Of a stretch of DNA of 64,000 nt, positions 14,133 through 43,993 are shown in pieces; the stretch's first letter is position 1, and every line of letters begins with the position of its first letter. Made by a program: the position numbers and the translations under genes. The stretch comes from a virus. Its lineage: Duplodnaviria > Caudoviricetes. A model generated the notes under the pieces. It was not told where the DNA came from. It searched no databases and saw only the letters and a list, made by a program, of their open reading frames with translations. The stretch covers positions 1 through 64,000 of IMG/VR virus record IMGVR_UViG_3300031555_004942; one strand, written 5' to 3'.

Positions 14133-14175
14133 AGTGTAATTCCTTTCTTTTTTGTCAAAAATTTTATAAAAACTA

Positions 14176-14204
14176 TTGACAAATTTAAAGTTTTATGTTA
14201 TAAT
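14176..14204 (+). promoter_or_regulatory. antisense sigmaA promoter, cassette A
   Basis: TTGACA-17bp-(TG)TATAAT facing against the - strand operon. Confidence 0.85.
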
Positions 14205-14209
14205 ATAAA

Positions 14210-14359
14210 AAGAGAAGAAAAGTATAGGTTCACTTCTCTAATATATTATTTACAAGCAGGGAAAGAAATTTCCCTTACATGTTCGTTAGAGTCATAAGAC
14301 TCCAAATAATTTGCAGGAATGAATCCTATTGTTTTGTGTTGGGGATTCATTCCATTTTT
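14210..14359 (+). ncRNA. putative antisense sRNA, cassette A
   Basis: Promoter, four hairpins, terminal GGAATGAATCC..GGATTCATTCC + T tract; homologous to cassette E. Confidence 0.7.
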
Positions 14360-14410
14360 ATTACTCAAATTATTAACAAACATATTATAAGGATAATTAA
14401 AATTATTCAT
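14246..14410 (-). CDS. 54-aa peptide, cassette A (family 2)
   Basis: SD GAAAGGAG; MNNFNYPYNMFVNNLSNKNGMNPQHKTIGFIPANYLESYDSNEHVREISFPACK. Confidence 0.75.
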   Translation of the reverse strand: MNNFNYPYNMFVNNLSNKNGMNPQHKTIGFIPANYLESYDSNEHVREISFPACK

Positions 14411-14513
14411 AATATCAACTCCTTTCAGTAAGAAATCTCAATTAAAGAATCCCTATACAATTCTTTTCAATCAAATCATAAACATCACTCCTTTCAGAAT
14501 TTAATTATTTTTT

Positions 14514-15452
14514 TTATTCTTTTACCTCACATTCATAAAAATTCTCATCACACTCAGCACAAACATAATCATACTGAGGTAAATCACTTTTAAATAGATA
14601 ACATCCACAATGAGGACATTCTTTATCTGTTCTACATTTATCAATTACTTTTACAATGGGTTCTACAATATCTGAGAGATAATCAAGTACTTCATTATTA
14701 GAAGGGATAAAGGAGCTTAACTCATTGATATAATCAACTGCTTTAACAATATCTGTTATTGATAAATCTTTTATTGTGTTTTGACAATCTTCAAAATTTT
14801 TTGTTCTATCTTGTGGTGTATCAAATTCATTAATTTTCTGATTATGATCTTCAAAAGTTTTATCAATAAGATAATCAAAACACACATCATAATATTTTTC
14901 ATAATATTTTTCTGAATTATCACTATTTATTTCATTAGAGTGTAATTCTTGAATAACTGCATATAAAAATTTTTCTTTAACTGAATGAATCCAATCCATT
15001 TTACAAATTTCGATTTCATCTTCAGAGCATTCAGGTAAATCAGGTCTTGTTATACAATAATCTGTTTCAAAATTATCATCAAGAAAGCTATTTTTAAAAT
15101 CAAGGTTCATTTTTTCAGCAATTTTATCAAAAACAGATATAAGTTCATTATACATAATATTATTTTTATTCATATAACTTTCCTCCATATAAAAATTCTT
15201 TAATACATTTTCTAACTCTTGAAGAGAAATTGTTTTAGTATATTTATAATTTGTATCCTCATCTTCATATCTACAATAAATGACATAATGAGGATTTCCA
15301 TCATTAGATGATTTATATACATCAACAAATCTTTCTGTTCCATTTTTAAACTTTTTAATAATAAAACATCCACTACTATCTGTAACATCATCAAAACTAC
15401 ATGTTTTTAATATTTCATGGATTTGCTTTGCTGTATGTTTTATATTTTTCAT
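14514..15452 (-). CDS. hypothetical protein with C-terminal Zn ribbon (possible two-gene fusion)
   Basis: CPHCG..CAEC; internal SD+ATG at 15173. Confidence 0.7.
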   Translation of the reverse strand: MKNIKHTAKQIHEILKTCSFDDVTDSSGCFIIKKFKNGTERFVDVYKSSNDGNPHYVIYCRYEDEDTNYKYTKTISLQELENVLKNFYMEESYMNKNNIMYNELISVFDKIAEKMNLDFKNSFLDDNFETDYCITRPDLPECSEDEIEICKMDWIHSVKEKFLYAVIQELHSNEINSDNSEKYYEKYYDVCFDYLIDKTFEDHNQKINEFDTPQDRTKNFEDCQNTIKDLSITDIVKAVDYINELSSFIPSNNEVLDYLSDIVEPIVKVIDKCRTDKECPHCGCYLFKSDLPQYDYVCAECDENFYECEVKE

Positions 15453-15453
15453 A

Positions 15454-15867
15454 TTAATTATCCTCCTTAACACATTTTTCAATTAAAACAATTGCATCTT
15501 CATCGACATCAAATATTGGTCCTGTTTTATTAATTATATTAAGAATTATTTTTTCGAACTCATTTCTTATTAATTCTTTGTCCATATCTAAATCTATAGA
15601 ATAAATATTAGGGCATCCACCTCCATATATATCTGTAATAAAATTAGGGTCAAAAGAATCAAACCCAGTATCTATGCAATGTATACCACACCACATATGT
15701 TCAACAGCACTATAAGCAAATACTATATCATCAGTAATTGTTCCATCATAATATACAAAAGAATAATCATTCCAATTCCATGGTTCTTCATTTTTAGACA
15801 TTACACTTTCTGATAATATTGTAGCAAAATTTTCAACAGTTATTAATTTCATATTTTTTTCATTCAT
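15454..15867 (-). CDS. hypothetical protein
   Basis: SD AAGGAG. Confidence 0.75.
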   Translation of the reverse strand: MNEKNMKLITVENFATILSESVMSKNEEPWNWNDYSFVYYDGTITDDIVFAYSAVEHMWCGIHCIDTGFDSFDPNFITDIYGGGCPNIYSIDLDMDKELIRNEFEKIILNIINKTGPIFDVDEDAIVLIEKCVKEDN

Positions 15868-15905
15868 AGTTTTTTCTCCTTTTTATAAAAATTTTTAAAT
15901 TTTAC

Positions 15906-15934
15906 TTGACAATTTTAAAATTTTATGATATAAT
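15906..15934 (+). promoter_or_regulatory. antisense sigmaA promoter, cassette B
   Basis: TTGACA-17bp-(TG)TATAAT. Confidence 0.85.
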
Positions 15935-15939
15935 ATAAA

Positions 15940-16095
15940 TAAAGAGAGGAGATATTATCTCCTCTCCTATGAAAGTTTATTTGAATTCTGTTATAGAAAC
16001 AAAATCCAAATCGGGATTAAATCCCATATTTGTGTCAAATAATATATTTGACTGAATAGAAACTACTTCGGTTGGTGGAGTAGTTTCTTTTATTT
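15940..16095 (+). ncRNA. putative antisense sRNA, cassette B
   Basis: Hairpins GAGAGGAGAT/ATCTCCTCTC, GGGAT/ATCCC, GTCAAATA/TATTTGAC; terminator AGAAACTACTTC/GGAGTAGTTTCT-TTTATTT. Confidence 0.7.
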
Positions 16096-16108
16096 GTTCT
16101 ACATTCAT
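15977..16108 (-). CDS. 43-aa peptide, cassette B (family 1)
   Basis: SD GAAAGGAGGTGAT; MNVEQIKETTPPTEVVSIQSNILFDTNMGFNPDLDFVSITEFK. Confidence 0.8.
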   Translation of the reverse strand: MNVEQIKETTPPTEVVSIQSNILFDTNMGFNPDLDFVSITEFK

Positions 16109-16136
16109 ATCATCACCTCCTTTCAATAGATATAAG

Positions 16137-23846: not shown

Positions 23847-23875
23847 TTGACAAATATAATTATTTATGATATAAT
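23847..23875 (+). promoter_or_regulatory. antisense sigmaA promoter, cassette C
   Basis: TTGACA-17bp-(TG)TATAAT. Confidence 0.85.
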
Positions 23876-23880
23876 ATAAA

Positions 23881-24028
23881 CAGAGAGAGGAGATTTCTCT
23901 CCTCTCATATATTTATTTAAATTCATTAAATGGTATAAAACCCAATTCAAAGTCAAATCCTAAATTTGGGTCAAATAATGAATTCTTTTTTAATTCAGGT
24001 ACTTCGTTTGAAGTACTTGTTTTTATTT
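23881..24028 (+). ncRNA. putative antisense sRNA, cassette C
   Basis: 5' GAGAGGAGA/TCTCCTCTC hairpin; terminator CAGGTACTTC-GTTT-GAAGTACTTG-TTTTTATTT. Confidence 0.7.
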
Positions 24029-24047
24029 GTTCATTATTATCGTTCAT
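23913..24047 (-). CDS. 44-aa peptide, cassette C (family 1)
   Basis: SD GGAAGGAG; MNDNNEQIKTSTSNEVPELKKNSLFDPNLGFDFELGFIPFNEFK. Confidence 0.8.
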   Translation of the reverse strand: MNDNNEQIKTSTSNEVPELKKNSLFDPNLGFDFELGFIPFNEFK

Positions 24048-24121
24048 ATTTCTCAACTCCTTCCTTGTTATATTTTTAATTAATTAAATCATATCCATCA
24101 CCCCTTTCAATAAATTATTTT

Positions 24122-31223: not shown

Positions 31224-31997
31224 TTAATTACTCCTTTCTTTTGCATAATTATATATCTTATCAGTAATATCTTCCTCAAAAATATTACCTATAAAATATT
31301 CATCTTTTTCATCCATATGACGATAACTCATATCACAACTCGAATATAAGTTACCATTATAAGAAATATATATTTGACCCTCATTTATCCATATATCTTC
31401 ATCTTGATATTCAGATAATTCAAGATAAGGCTTTTCAAGAGGTGTTGTTCTATATCCCCATGACAGATCTTTAGCTCTACCTTCTTCTATAAGATAAACA
31501 TAACTAAAATCTGTCTTTTTATCTTGTGTTCGAATATATTCTCTTTCCTTTTCATAATATTCTCCATAATCTTCTATGATTTCATATTGATATTTACATA
31601 TGTTTTTGTTAAGTTTATCATATGGAACAAATTCTTCATGAAACATATCCGAAGAAAAAGCTAAACCACATATTTCTGGTTCACTTGATATATTATATAA
31701 TCTATCACAAAGTTCAACAAGTTTATGATGATATACTTTACCGTTTGTGACAATATAAAACGCATATAATGAATTTAACCGATTAACAAATGATTCAAGA
31801 ATGTCAAGAGCTAATGTTGGTTCACCTCCTCCAAAAGTTATTTCTGTTTGAGACATATCAAAAATATCAAATATCCGATTAATTACTTCTTCGGACATCT
31901 TTTTATTTTGAGCAGGTCCTCTCAAACAATGTTTACATGCAATATTGCATTTTCTACTTATTTCTGGAATTAATTGATAAGCATGAATTTTACACAT
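31224..31997 (-). CDS. radical SAM protein
   Basis: CNIACKHC motif, FGGGEP, VTNG, partial SPASM-like tail. Confidence 0.9.
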   Translation of the reverse strand: MCKIHAYQLIPEISRKCNIACKHCLRGPAQNKKMSEEVINRIFDIFDMSQTEITFGGGEPTLALDILESFVNRLNSLYAFYIVTNGKVYHHKLVELCDRLYNISSEPEICGLAFSSDMFHEEFVPYDKLNKNICKYQYEIIEDYGEYYEKEREYIRTQDKKTDFSYVYLIEEGRAKDLSWGYRTTPLEKPYLELSEYQDEDIWINEGQIYISYNGNLYSSCDMSYRHMDEKDEYFIGNIFEEDITDKIYNYAKERSN

Positions 31998-32122
31998 ATT
32001 ATTTATCCTCCTCATCTTTTATTATATTTTTATTTTCACAAGAGAAAAAATCTTGTTCTAACATGCAATTTTCACAAGCTTCAAAATCTATTCCATTATT
32101 AGGACAATCTTTGCAATTCATA

Positions 32123-34865: not shown

Positions 34866-34894
34866 TTGACAATTTTAAAATTATATGATATAAT
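34866..34894 (+). promoter_or_regulatory. antisense sigmaA promoter, cassette D
   Basis: TTGACA-17bp-(TG)TATAAT. Confidence 0.85.
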
Positions 34895-34899
34895 ATACA

Positions 34900-35037
34900 A
34901 AAGAGGAGATTTCTCTCCTCTGATGTATTAATTGTATGGAATAAAATCCAAATTAGGATTAAATCCCAAATTTATGTCAAATATAATATTTGACTCTGTA
35001 GAGACTATTTCATGGGGAGGAGTAGTCTCTTTTATTT
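34900..35037 (+). ncRNA. putative antisense sRNA, cassette D
   Basis: Same hairpins as B; terminator AGAGACTATTTC/GGAGTAGTCTCT with a compensatory change relative to B. Confidence 0.7.
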
Positions 35038-35053
35038 GTTCATTATTATCCAT
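34928..35053 (-). CDS. 41-aa peptide, cassette D (family 1)
   Basis: SD GAAAGGAG; MDNNEQIKETTPPHEIVSTESNIIFDINLGFNPNLDFIPYN. Confidence 0.8.
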   Translation of the reverse strand: MDNNEQIKETTPPHEIVSTESNIIFDINLGFNPNLDFIPYN

Positions 35054-35133
35054 ATATTTCAACTCCTTTCTATATTAAATTTTAAATAACTTAAATCATA
35101 AGCATCACTTCTTTCAAATATAATTTTATTATT

Positions 35134-36302: not shown

Positions 36303-36331
36303 TTGACAATTTTATTTTTTTATGTTATAAT
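36303..36331 (+). promoter_or_regulatory. antisense sigmaA promoter, cassette E
   Basis: TTGACA-17bp-(TG)TATAAT. Confidence 0.85.
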
Positions 36332-36336
36332 GTAGA

Positions 36337-36479
36337 TATAGAAGTAAAGTATAGGTTTACTTCTTGATATATTATCTACATATAGGTAGAATTAATTCTT
36401 CTACTTGTTCACTATAACAGCAGTTATAGGTTTTTGATGGAATGAACACAGGGTTGAATGCAGGGTTCATTCCTTTTTT
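36337..36479 (+). ncRNA. putative antisense sRNA, cassette E
   Basis: AGAAGTAAA-GTATAGG-TTTACTTCT; GTAGAA/TTCTAC; CTATAAC/GTTATAG; GGAATGAAC/GTTCATTCC-TTTTTT. Confidence 0.72.
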
Positions 36480-36530
36480 ACTATCAATAATAATCTTTTG
36501 ACCATTAGTAATAATATAATGATTATTCAT
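36372..36530 (-). CDS. 52-aa peptide, cassette E (family 2)
   Basis: SD AAAGGAG; MNNHYIITNGQKIIIDSKKGMNPAFNPVFIPSKTYNCCYSEQVEELILPICR. Confidence 0.75.
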   Translation of the reverse strand: MNNHYIITNGQKIIIDSKKGMNPAFNPVFIPSKTYNCCYSEQVEELILPICR

Positions 36531-36621
36531 ATTATCATCTCCTTTACTTATATAATCTTAATTAAAGAATTCCTATACAATTCTTTTTTTATTAAATCAT
36601 AATACATCAACTCCCTTCATA

Positions 36622-37254: not shown

Positions 37255-37500
37255 AATATTTTCTCCTTTTATTAAAAAATTGTTAGACAGGTTATTTTGA
37301 GTGATTTTGTTACTGTAACACACTCTGCTTGAGTAACTGTGTATTATTACATAGAACCTTCATCAAGTTCTATCTCTCGTTCTGCTTCAAATTCATCATC
37401 TGCAGAACACATGAACTCTCCATTCCTAAAGACTTCATAATGTCCTTTGTTTGGAATGATTTCATAATAATTTGACATTGTTTTACCTCCTTTCATAATT

Positions 37501-37849
37501 TTGCTGAATTCAGAATATTTTACGTTAAAGAGTTATAAAATTGAAACTCAATAATCTTTATATTCTAAATTTTTTAGTTTTTTGAGGGCATAAATCTGTA
37601 AAGTTCAGTGGATAGTTTTATTTAATTCTGGAACTTGTTTTTAAAATTCCTTGAATTGTTTTTTAAACTCATAGAACCTCTTTTAGAAATCCTATGAGTT
37701 ATTTGTTGTCCTTCCACATCACTATTTATCATTGGTATGTTGACCTCCTTTCTTGTGTATGTATGATACCCTCCGAGATGTAATAAAACATCTCTATAAG
37801 CCTACAATAAAATTATTATAAGCTTATAGAGACACTTTATCGTGTCTCT
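37501..37849 (-). repeat. duplicated leader element, copy 1
   Basis: Ordered conserved blocks shared with 38458..38780. Confidence 0.75.
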
Positions 37850-38437: not shown

Positions 38438-38457
38438 ATTTTTTCTCCTTTCGTTTT

Positions 38458-38780
38458 TTGCTGAATTCAGAATATTTTTCGTTAAAGAATTATATAGTTA
38501 AAACTAAATACCATAAATATTTTAAATTCTCGGTTTTTTCGAGGGCGTAATCTTTTTTATCATGGTGGCTTTCTGTTATAATCTTTGCCAACTTGTTTAA
38601 ATCTGCAAGGATTATTTTTAAAAAGTTTTAAATTTTTGATTGATTTTACACCTTCCACAGTGACTTCCTCCTTTCTTCTTATGTATATCCCCCACCTACA
38701 TTGTAGGACTGAGGTATTCTTAGAATACCTCTATTAACCCATAATTAAATAAATAATTATGAGCTAATATAGGTACTCTA
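38458..38780 (-). repeat. duplicated leader element, copy 2
   Basis: Ordered conserved blocks shared with 37501..37849. Confidence 0.75.
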
Positions 38781-39518: not shown

Positions 39519-39547
39519 TTGACAAATAATATCTTTTGTGCTATAAT
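39519..39547 (+). promoter_or_regulatory. antisense sigmaA promoter convergent on 39635..40000
   Basis: TTGACA-17bp-(TG)TATAAT. Confidence 0.75.
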
Positions 39548-40000: not shown

Positions 40001-40226
40001 ATACACACCTCCTTTCTATAAAATTTAAGAAGAATCGTTATACATAGATAACTCCTTTCTTTGTGTGTTTATCTTGCATTTTTGTTATTTAACACTAATA
40101 ACAGATGCTCTCAAACCTTGTTGTTTGTAGACCTACCTATTAGTAACGCTTTGAGCTTAACTACCTATTTATACTCGCTCAAACGAGTTTGAAAGAGAGA
40201 TATATTTCAATCTCTCTTTCTATAAC

Positions 40227-43964: not shown

Positions 43965-43993
43965 ATTATAACATATAAAACAATAAATGTCAA
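43965..43993 (-). promoter_or_regulatory. sigmaA promoter
   Basis: TTGACA-17bp-(TG)TATAAT on - strand. Confidence 0.8.

Follow-up and report, generated by a model that had tools for sequence, protein, structure and literature searches.

An uncultured gut phage, labelled here as putatively SPbeta-like, carries among its early genes two small cassettes, A and E, in which a peptide gene is bracketed by two RNA hairpins with exactly complementary loops. The DNA analysed, hereafter the window, is the first 64 kb (64,000 nucleotides) of the 117-kb IMG/VR virus record IMGVR_UViG_3300031555_004942, which has an estimated completeness of 67% and a G+C content of ~27%. In related cassettes the loop sequences change and their complementarity is kept. 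We lean towards the reading that the cassette is similar to a type I toxin-antitoxin locus and that its two loops kiss over a long range, the loop of the leader hairpin mimicking the recognition loop of an antisense RNA. Sequence comparison makes it probable that the message closes on itself through these loops and that the contact gates expression of the peptide.

Anatomy of the two cassettes

Both cassettes lie in a run of - strand genes that extends from ~13000 to 44700 of the window, and the only perfect sigma70-type promoters on the - strand of the window are those at 43993 and 45038. Within the run, six perfect promoters oppose the direction of the genes, five of them belonging to cassettes A to E. 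On the - strand, A and E share one order of elements: a strong Shine-Dalgarno sequence (SD) with a mini-open reading frame (mini-ORF), the leader hairpin, a second SD, the peptide ORF and the 3' hairpin, directly after which comes the reverse complement of TTGACA-17-TATAAT. The elements of cassette A are as follows.

14471-14493 (-): extended SD AAGGAGUGAU and mini-ORF AUG AUU UGA (14479->14471), with its stop 4 nt upstream of the leader hairpin
14444-14466 (-): leader hairpin AAAGAAUU-GUAUAGG-GAUUCUUU, loop 14458->14452, folded with ViennaRNA
14246-14426 (-): SD GAAAGGAG (14426->14419) and 54-aa peptide ORF (14410->14246), C-terminus FPACK
14211-14239 (-): 3' hairpin AGAGAAGUGAA-CCUAUAC-UUUUCUUCUCU, loop 14228->14222, then a U-run
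14176-14204 (+): convergent promoter TTGACA-17-TATAAT with TG extension, 12/12 matches, directed into the peptide ORF
14211-14360 (+): predicted antisense RNA of ~150 nt, with ends inferred from the promoter and from a hairpin followed by AUUUUUA

Cassette E is built in the same way.

36592-36616 (-): SD and mini-ORF AUG AUU UAA (36600->36592), with its stop 5 nt upstream of the leader hairpin
36564-36586 (-): leader hairpin AAAGAAUU-GUAUAGG-AAUUCUUU, loop 36578->36572, folded with ViennaRNA
36372-36530 (-): 52-aa peptide ORF, C-terminus LPICR
36340-36364 (-): 3' hairpin AGAAGUAAA-CCUAUAC-UUUACUUCU, loop 36355->36349, with no good U-run after it
36303-36331 (+): convergent promoter TTGACA-17-TATAAT with TG extension
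36338-36480 (+): predicted antisense RNA of ~140 nt, its inferred 3' end set by a hairpin at 36439-36473 and UUUUUU at 36474-36479

The initial annotation of this DNA had described the four hairpins, and its coordinates and sequences for A and E are all correct. ViennaRNA places the heptamers in the hairpin loops in every case; the leaders fold with -5.2 kcal/mol in both cassettes (z -2.4 in A and -3.3 in E), and the 3' hairpins with -7.7 (z -2.3) and -7.5 kcal/mol (z -4.5), respectively. As had also been noted, the 7-nt loops are complementary and the same in A and E, with diverged sequence between them; the two peptides are only 33-35% identical. The remark that the wobble pairs of A favour the - strand holds as well: because of a U.G pair, the A leader is steadier on that strand (-5.2 kcal/mol) than on the + strand (-2.1 kcal/mol). 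Counted on both strands of the window, the heptamer occurs 7 times versus ~4 expected, and four of the seven are the A and E loops. This count by itself proves nothing; it is the position of the heptamers and their behaviour in relatives that exceed chance.

The extended SD/mini-ORF motif was found in the window in cassettes A, C and D only, with 0.02 occurrences expected. As a separate observation, the mini-ORF SD AAAGGAGUGAU stands on the - strand at 14474-14493, 24087-24106, 35094-35113 and 36598-36616, and it is a near-perfect complement of the 3' end of 16S rRNA, that is, an extended SD. Over-long SDs are also a property of txpA and yonT (PMC6562991).

Covarying loops, the antisense strand and the peptide

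Relatives were collected by two routes. A YonO-type protein used as the query led to three related virus records, of which G001 carries two cassettes of the family, G1a and G1b, and G002 contains the same region. The second route went through the contigs of close homologues of the FtsK-like gene, the downstream neighbour of cassette A, which has many homologues. A peptide profile gave 16 family members, and four further contigs were then compared. The comparison thus covers nine cassettes of the A/E kind (A, E, L270, L280, L281, G1a, G1b, L282 and L279), seven of which come from beyond the window. Other searches added little. Scans of viral collections with the leader hairpin, the mini-ORF motif, the cassette 3' end and the exact 20-mer of the mini-ORF SD returned only the G001/G002 cassettes, the remaining matches being coding noise or ordinary gene starts. 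Scans of metagenomes and genomes returned no cassette, with a 3'-end pattern that needed TGTTATAAT and was blind to the TGATATAAT variants of L270 and L280. A related-locus search with the FtsK-like protein as the query found nothing, and the peptide profile gave no match in G001-G003 despite the two cassettes there, so that search is insensitive.

The loops of the nine cassettes are paired as follows.

A, E and L270: leader loop GUAUAGG, 3' loop CCUAUAC; the 3' stem of L270 has a U.G pair
L280: leader loop AUAGGG, 3' loop CCCUAU; stems AGAAGAUA/UAUCUUCU and AGAGUAAAUU/AAUUUACUCU, very unlike those of E
G1a: leader loop AUUGUGAG, of which UUGUGAGC pairs, 3' loop GCUCACAA; leader hairpin AAAGAAUG-AUUGUGAG-CAUUUU
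G1b, L282 and L279: leader UGUUGGG or CGUUGGG, 3' loop CUCAACA; 6-7 pairs with one conserved G.U
L281: no leader, 3' loop CCUAUAC

Covariation in these homologues speaks for the pairing: four distinct pairs are matched across the nine cassettes, and in A, E, L270, L280 and G1a the complements, 6-8 nt long, lie in two hairpin loops. Every leader that is present contains a stretch fully complementary to the 3' loop of the same cassette (7, 7, 7, 6, 8, 7, 6 and 6 nt), whereas non-cognate pairs of leader and loop reach 5 nt at most, and L281 reaches 4. With G.U allowed and depending on the type, 1.5-4.9% of shuffled leaders matched as well as the real one, which gives a Fisher combined p of 3.8e-4 for the four types, or 1e-3 when L280 is left out as a relative of the A type. 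The change between E and L280 is coordinated: the leader loop went from A to G at its 3' edge and the 3' loop from A to C at its 5' edge, such that a new G-C pair was gained and the former GU:AC pairs were lost. Between A and L270, by comparison, ~49% of synonymous sites differ and 0/14 loop bases do, for which the probability under neutral change is ~1e-4. Two metagenome variants of A carry ~20 differences in the ORF (14266-14428), with none listed in the leader hairpin. Furthermore, the arms of the leader hairpins agree with those of the predicted antisense 5' hairpins at about half of the positions, and the loops agree fully.

Formal pair counting was left aside, since MAFFT put the loops of different subgroups in different columns. 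We also tried the duplex energy of the whole leader against the whole tail, which did not separate cognate from non-cognate combinations except in A, because both regions are purine/pyrimidine tracts; the loop-specific test was used instead. A YUNR U-turn was considered as a general feature of the loops and rejected: CUCA occurs in the 3' loops of G1a and G1b and is absent from CCUAUAC and CCCUAU.

As to which molecule carries the match, the stem wobbles in A and L270 fit only RNA of the - strand. The loop pair of the G1b type contains a G.U that is conserved in three sequences, where the corresponding DNA cores are TGTTGGG and TGTTGAG. Together, the wobbles and the conserved G.U point to - strand RNA, not to DNA.

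The opposite strand carries what would be the antisense RNA. A convergent promoter TTGACA-17-TATAAT with TG extension and 12/12 matches is directed into the ORF in all nine cassettes, and six of the nine (A, E, G1a, G1b, L280 and L281) also contain, within the ORF, a + strand hairpin with a T-run after it. In A this hairpin (14316-14353) reads GGAAUGAAUCC...GGAUUCAUUCC and then AUUUUUA; in E and L281 it ends in GUUCAUUCC and then UUUUUU; those of G1a and G1b have different stems, each followed by UUUUUU. With a start placed ~7 nt after the -10 box in A, the predicted antisense RNA would be ~140-150 nt long and have about four stem-loops. Its first hairpin would be the complement of the message 3' hairpin, and its loop therefore equals that of the leader; indeed, the A 3' hairpin read on the + strand has the loop GUAUAGG. 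The promoters and, in six cassettes, the hairpins with T-runs speak for the putative antisense RNA of the initial annotation, which would display the leader-loop sequence in its own 5' loop.

The ORF between the hairpins encodes peptides of 39-55 aa across the family. Its dN/dS is 0.2-0.55 in all but one of eleven comparisons (0.39 for A vs L270, 0.22 for E vs L280), the exception being a chimera, and the indels in metagenome variants of A come in frame-restoring sets. These values, the strong SDs and the frame-preserving indels indicate that the ORF is coding and under purifying selection. The conserved peptide motifs GMNP...GFIP, ESYDS and EISFP coincide with the hairpins of the predicted antisense RNA, so the same bases would be constrained by RNA structure and by coding. 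No relatives of the peptides were found in Pfam, PHROGs or the ESM Atlas, and an AlphaFold2 model from 19 sequences (pLDDT 53, no secondary structure) was uninformative. The Cys at the C-terminus is variable, some peptides having PAYR or IPIR as their last residues.

Proposed domain closure and competing explanations

We propose the following sequence of events. A and E are two copies of a self-contained cassette borne between the early genes of SPbeta-like gut phages. A convergent promoter of host type would yield the antisense RNA of ~140-150 nt, terminating inside the ORF, and the 3' loop of the message would serve as the recognition loop for it. The same 3' loop, over 6-8 nt, would kiss the leader loop of its own message and close a domain of ~230 nt around the ORF, making the leader loop, which has the sequence of the antisense 5' loop, a built-in competitor of the antisense recognition loop. 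Once closed, the domain would be poorly translated and out of reach of the antisense RNA. It could reopen when translation of the mini-ORF ends 0-5 nt upstream of the weak leader hairpin and the terminating ribosome melts that hairpin. In A, E, L270 and L280, 4-5 nt separate the mini-ORF stop from the leader hairpin that follows it; in G1a the two overlap. In two cassettes the partner motif overlaps an SD: in L279 that of the peptide, and in L282 that of an upstream ORF of 12 codons whose stop is inside the main SD-AUG spacer. Both overlaps fit translational control.

The initial annotation had proposed a 5'-3' kissing-loop closure. The covariation argues for the pairing; the extent of the closure has to be reduced. 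Because the leader sits inside a long early operon with no promoter before it, the contact would close a domain and not join a true 5' end to a true 3' end.

Several points weigh against this reading. First, there are only four loop alleles, from few uncultured phages, and the A type and L280 share the core AUAGG, which limits their independence. Second, the leader hairpins are weak (-5 to -7 kcal/mol), and for the G1b type it is not clear that a hairpin loop holds the 5' partner. Third, L281 has no mini-ORF or leader hairpin, both removed by a deletion between two SD repeats, and still has the 3' loop CCUAUAC; a cassette can thus do without the leader partner, at least for a short time. Fourth, cassettes B, C and D of the window have no large loops and no complementarity between leader and 3' loop, and the contact would thus be confined to one subfamily. 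Fifth, a strict terminator scan lists no site in cassettes A or E, at neither the 3' hairpin nor the + strand hairpin; it omits these hairpins because their loops exceed its limits (the A + strand loop is >8 nt). Finally, a toxin role is unsupported for these hydrophilic peptides of no known family. Their size is that of type I toxins (<60 aa) and their hydrophobicity is not: GRAVY ranges from -0.2 to -1.0, and the highest 15-aa hydropathy window is at most 0.8, with no membrane segment. We therefore describe the cassette as similar to a type I toxin-antitoxin system in its proposed workings, without counting it as one.

The main rival is a variant in which the same pairing controls termination, which we consider unlikely. 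As a long-range attenuator, it would set transcription readthrough and not translation or antisense access: a ribosome on the mini-ORF would free the leader loop and 3' arm, the freed elements would engage the 3' hairpin through its 5' arm and loop, thereby blocking the terminator, and the operon would continue downstream, for example into the FtsK-like gene after cassette A. Cassette A lends itself to this scheme, as both hairpins give way to a leader/3' helix of 5+7+9 bp in the whole-cassette fold of lowest energy, the duplex energy of -26.1 kcal/mol is beaten by 0/500 shuffles, and a U-run follows its 3' hairpin. The downstream genes are without a - strand promoter of their own, and the mini-ORF spacing fits leader-peptide logic. 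However, pairing beyond the loops is not conserved; the duplex energies of E, G1a and G1b are no better than those of shuffles, no U-run follows the 3' hairpins of E and G1a, 6-8 bp in the loops cannot out-compete stems of 9-11 bp, and the terminator scan finds nothing.

The match could instead be a historical leftover, an explanation to which we give little weight. Here, the leader hairpin would be a decayed inverted copy of the 3' hairpin, produced by the recombination that shuffles cassettes, and the match would have no function. That cassettes are shuffled is clear from the empty site in L271/L272, from the swapping of cassette types at one site, from the chimeric P0124, P0125 and P0130, and from the deletion in L281, which lies between two SD repeats; the leader arms do resemble those of the antisense 5' hairpin at about half of the positions, and L281 persists without a leader. 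Decay of a copy, however, would not readily leave a loop match of 100% beside an arm match of ~50%, nor 14/14 loop bases unchanged between A and L270 at a pS of 0.49, nor the coordinated changes in L280. Four matched pairs would need repeated fresh duplications, and the conserved G.U is not what an exact inverted copy gives.

Two further explanations fare much worse. It is highly improbable that one RNA- or DNA-binding protein reads the motif both in the leader and at the antisense start or in the promoter-proximal DNA: the leader loop and the antisense 5' loop are identical and the 3' hairpin occupies +1 to +30 of the + strand promoter, like an operator, but the motif differs within a single phage (G001 has both UUGUGAGC and UGUUGGG) and between close relatives, demanding a new protein each time, and the stems around it are unrelated.

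We think it just as remote that the hairpins are inverted DNA sites with a short asymmetric core, at which a recombinase would flip the 230-bp segment and bring the ORF under the + strand promoter, as the initial annotation had allowed for as its lesser alternative. Each site does resemble short inverted arms around an asymmetric centre of 6-8 bp. Heterospecific tyrosine-recombinase sites require matched cores, which are present here, and the phage has one tyrosine recombinase (79783-80334 of the record). However, no cassette has the same arms at its two sites, the cores of the G1b type are one base apart in all three sequences, the wobble pairs are strand-specific, the recombinase is ~65 kb off, and no serine recombinase was found. 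A single orientation is seen in all 11 assembled copies, two G002 copies included, and no opposite-strand joint at 14228/14452 was found in the contigs of four runs, where rare forms could hide. Neither identical cores with similar arms nor both orientations with a recombinase nearby were thus observed, and inversion is disfavoured.

Related systems and neighbouring features

The nearest described loci are bsrG/SR4 and yonT/SR6, two type I toxin-antitoxin loci on the Bacillus prophage SPbeta (PMC5848175). Their antisense RNAs overlap the message at the 3' end, have four stem-loops and make first contact loop to loop; SR4 binding at the message 3' end alters the structure at the SD, and the par system of the Enterococcus plasmid pAD1 is named in the same review (PMC6562991). 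The hok fold-back to which the initial annotation compared the cassettes is a loose analogy, the convergent, 3'-overlapping layout being nearer to bsrG/SR4 and yonT/SR6 (PMC6562991). Like these two, the cassettes have an SPbeta-type context, a small ORF and very strong SDs, a predicted convergent antisense RNA of ~100-180 nt that would overlap the 3' part of the message, about four antisense stem-loops and, in our proposal, a loop-loop first contact. Unlike them, the cassettes encode hydrophilic peptides without a membrane segment, and their ORF lies inside a long operon with no promoter of its own. No sequence or Rfam relationship to bsrG/SR4 or yonT/SR6 was found, and in a limited check at review level we did not find a message-internal copy of the antisense recognition loop described for either.

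In hok/sok and AapA1/IsoA1, pairing of the message ends keeps a small-ORF message closed, untranslated and inaccessible to the antisense RNA. This is achieved by extended linear 5'-3' helices over the SD or an activator element, opened by 3' processing, and the antisense RNAs target the 5' leader. The idea of message-end pairing that closes a small-ORF message is shared with the proposal made here. In contrast, the cassette contact would be a loop-loop one of only 6-8 nt, the predicted antisense RNA would target the 3' part, and the SD is left uncovered, except perhaps in L279. Loci of the hok/sok family further have an overlapping mok frame and a linear fbi/tac fold-back. With the antisense promoter at the 3' end, conservation of a loop-loop contact only and no Rfam match, the cassettes fall outside this family.

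In par (fst RNA I/RNA II of pAD1), one terminator hairpin is common to both convergent RNAs and makes the first contact through its loop, and direct repeats in the leader of the toxin message, as 5' elements, are complementary to the antisense RNA. Convergent RNAs, contact through a shared hairpin loop and involvement of the 5' leader would all be points of likeness. The cassette leader loop differs in that it repeats the sequence of the predicted antisense loop and complements the 3' loop of its own message. In ColE1 RNA I/RNA II and R1 CopA/CopT, likewise, 6-8 complementary nt stand in two hairpin loops, and the kissing loops form between two molecules; unlike these, the cassette pair would form within one message and compete with a partner in trans. 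Finally, the PeSL modules of T4-type phages, said to have been described by Arbiol et al. in 2010, reportedly consist of a promoter and a stem-loop, flank small ORFs and are shuffled at early-gene junctions, with promoters co-directional with the genes. We know of no antisense RNA or loop complementarity described for them. The cassettes resemble them as promoter and stem-loop modules at small ORFs that are mobile among early-gene junctions, and differ in that the cassette promoter is convergent to the ORF.

The portable unit consists of the leader hairpin, the peptide gene, the 3' hairpin and the convergent promoter, and it is inserted, deleted and swapped at early-gene junctions. More tentatively, and with less confidence than in the contact itself, we suggest that the leader loop is an 'anti-antisense' gate in a portable unit of ~290 bp that guards hydrophilic peptides, and that the cassettes, instead of being classical type I toxin-antitoxin loci, represent a new class of antisense-guarded phage small-protein modules. 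If the contact is real, the cassette is a compact and easily mutated message that carries a decoy of its own antisense regulator, and its four natural loop alleles offer specificity swaps ready for use. For type I toxin messages, 5'-3' control would then no longer be a matter of long helices alone but include simple loop-loop contact, and a regulatory module that is mobile and recurs in the early region of a widespread gut phage family would gain a name.

The site before the FtsK-like gene varies: it holds an A-type cassette in the window and in L270 and a B/D-type cassette in L268 and L269, and it is empty in L271 and L272. In these last two (L271:3920-4010; compare 14140-14500 of the window), a mini-ORF (MIVYEF*) alone precedes the FtsK-like gene; the cassette is thus an insertion/deletion unit of ~290 bp. 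In G001, G1a follows a homologue of the gene that precedes cassette C. The chimeric peptides P0124, P0125, P0130 and L281:4747-4905 join an E-type N-terminal half to an A-type C-terminal half, that of L281 ending in FPAYR. The junction falls at the GMNP...FIP codons, the place of the predicted + strand terminator hairpin, which suggests that cassettes recombine with each other there.

Cassettes B (15906-16124), C (23847-24108) and D (34866-35115) form a second subfamily, with relatives in L268, L269, L270:2990-3260, L274:2700-3030 and L277:250-545. Their peptides have 41-44 aa and the motif G(F)NP...FIP, and they share the same convergent promoter. The 3' hairpin is GAGAGGAGA-GAAA-UCUCCUCUC, a tetraloop hairpin with SD-like and anti-SD-like arms, and the relatives carry a 12-codon upstream ORF with its UGA stop inside the main SD-AUG spacer.

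No Rfam family of toxin or antitoxin RNAs was found in the window; the sole match at gathering level is a Pistol ribozyme (RF02679) in the early run, at 40127-40188 on the - strand, with 59.6 bits against a gathering threshold of 34.5. The sixth of the antisense-facing perfect promoters (39519-39547, + strand) lies near it. The early run also encodes a radical SAM protein of 263 aa (31224-32015, - strand), which gives weak matches, below the cut-off, to many radical SAM families including peptide maturases, and which has a homologue at L280:7310-8086, 2 kb upstream of the L280 cassette. A link between this protein and the Cys-containing peptides would be pure speculation. Two intergenic direct repeats of 95 nt in the early run (37499-37593 and 38456-38550) are 80% identical and start with TTTTGCTGAATTCAGAATATTTT.

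The phage is present in animal gut and feces metagenomes from at least 15 studies. In a contig of runs X7 and X9, 15175-15879 is replaced by 12 other letters. A 137-aa ORF (15454-15867) sits within the replaced stretch, and this gene is therefore missing from some strains.

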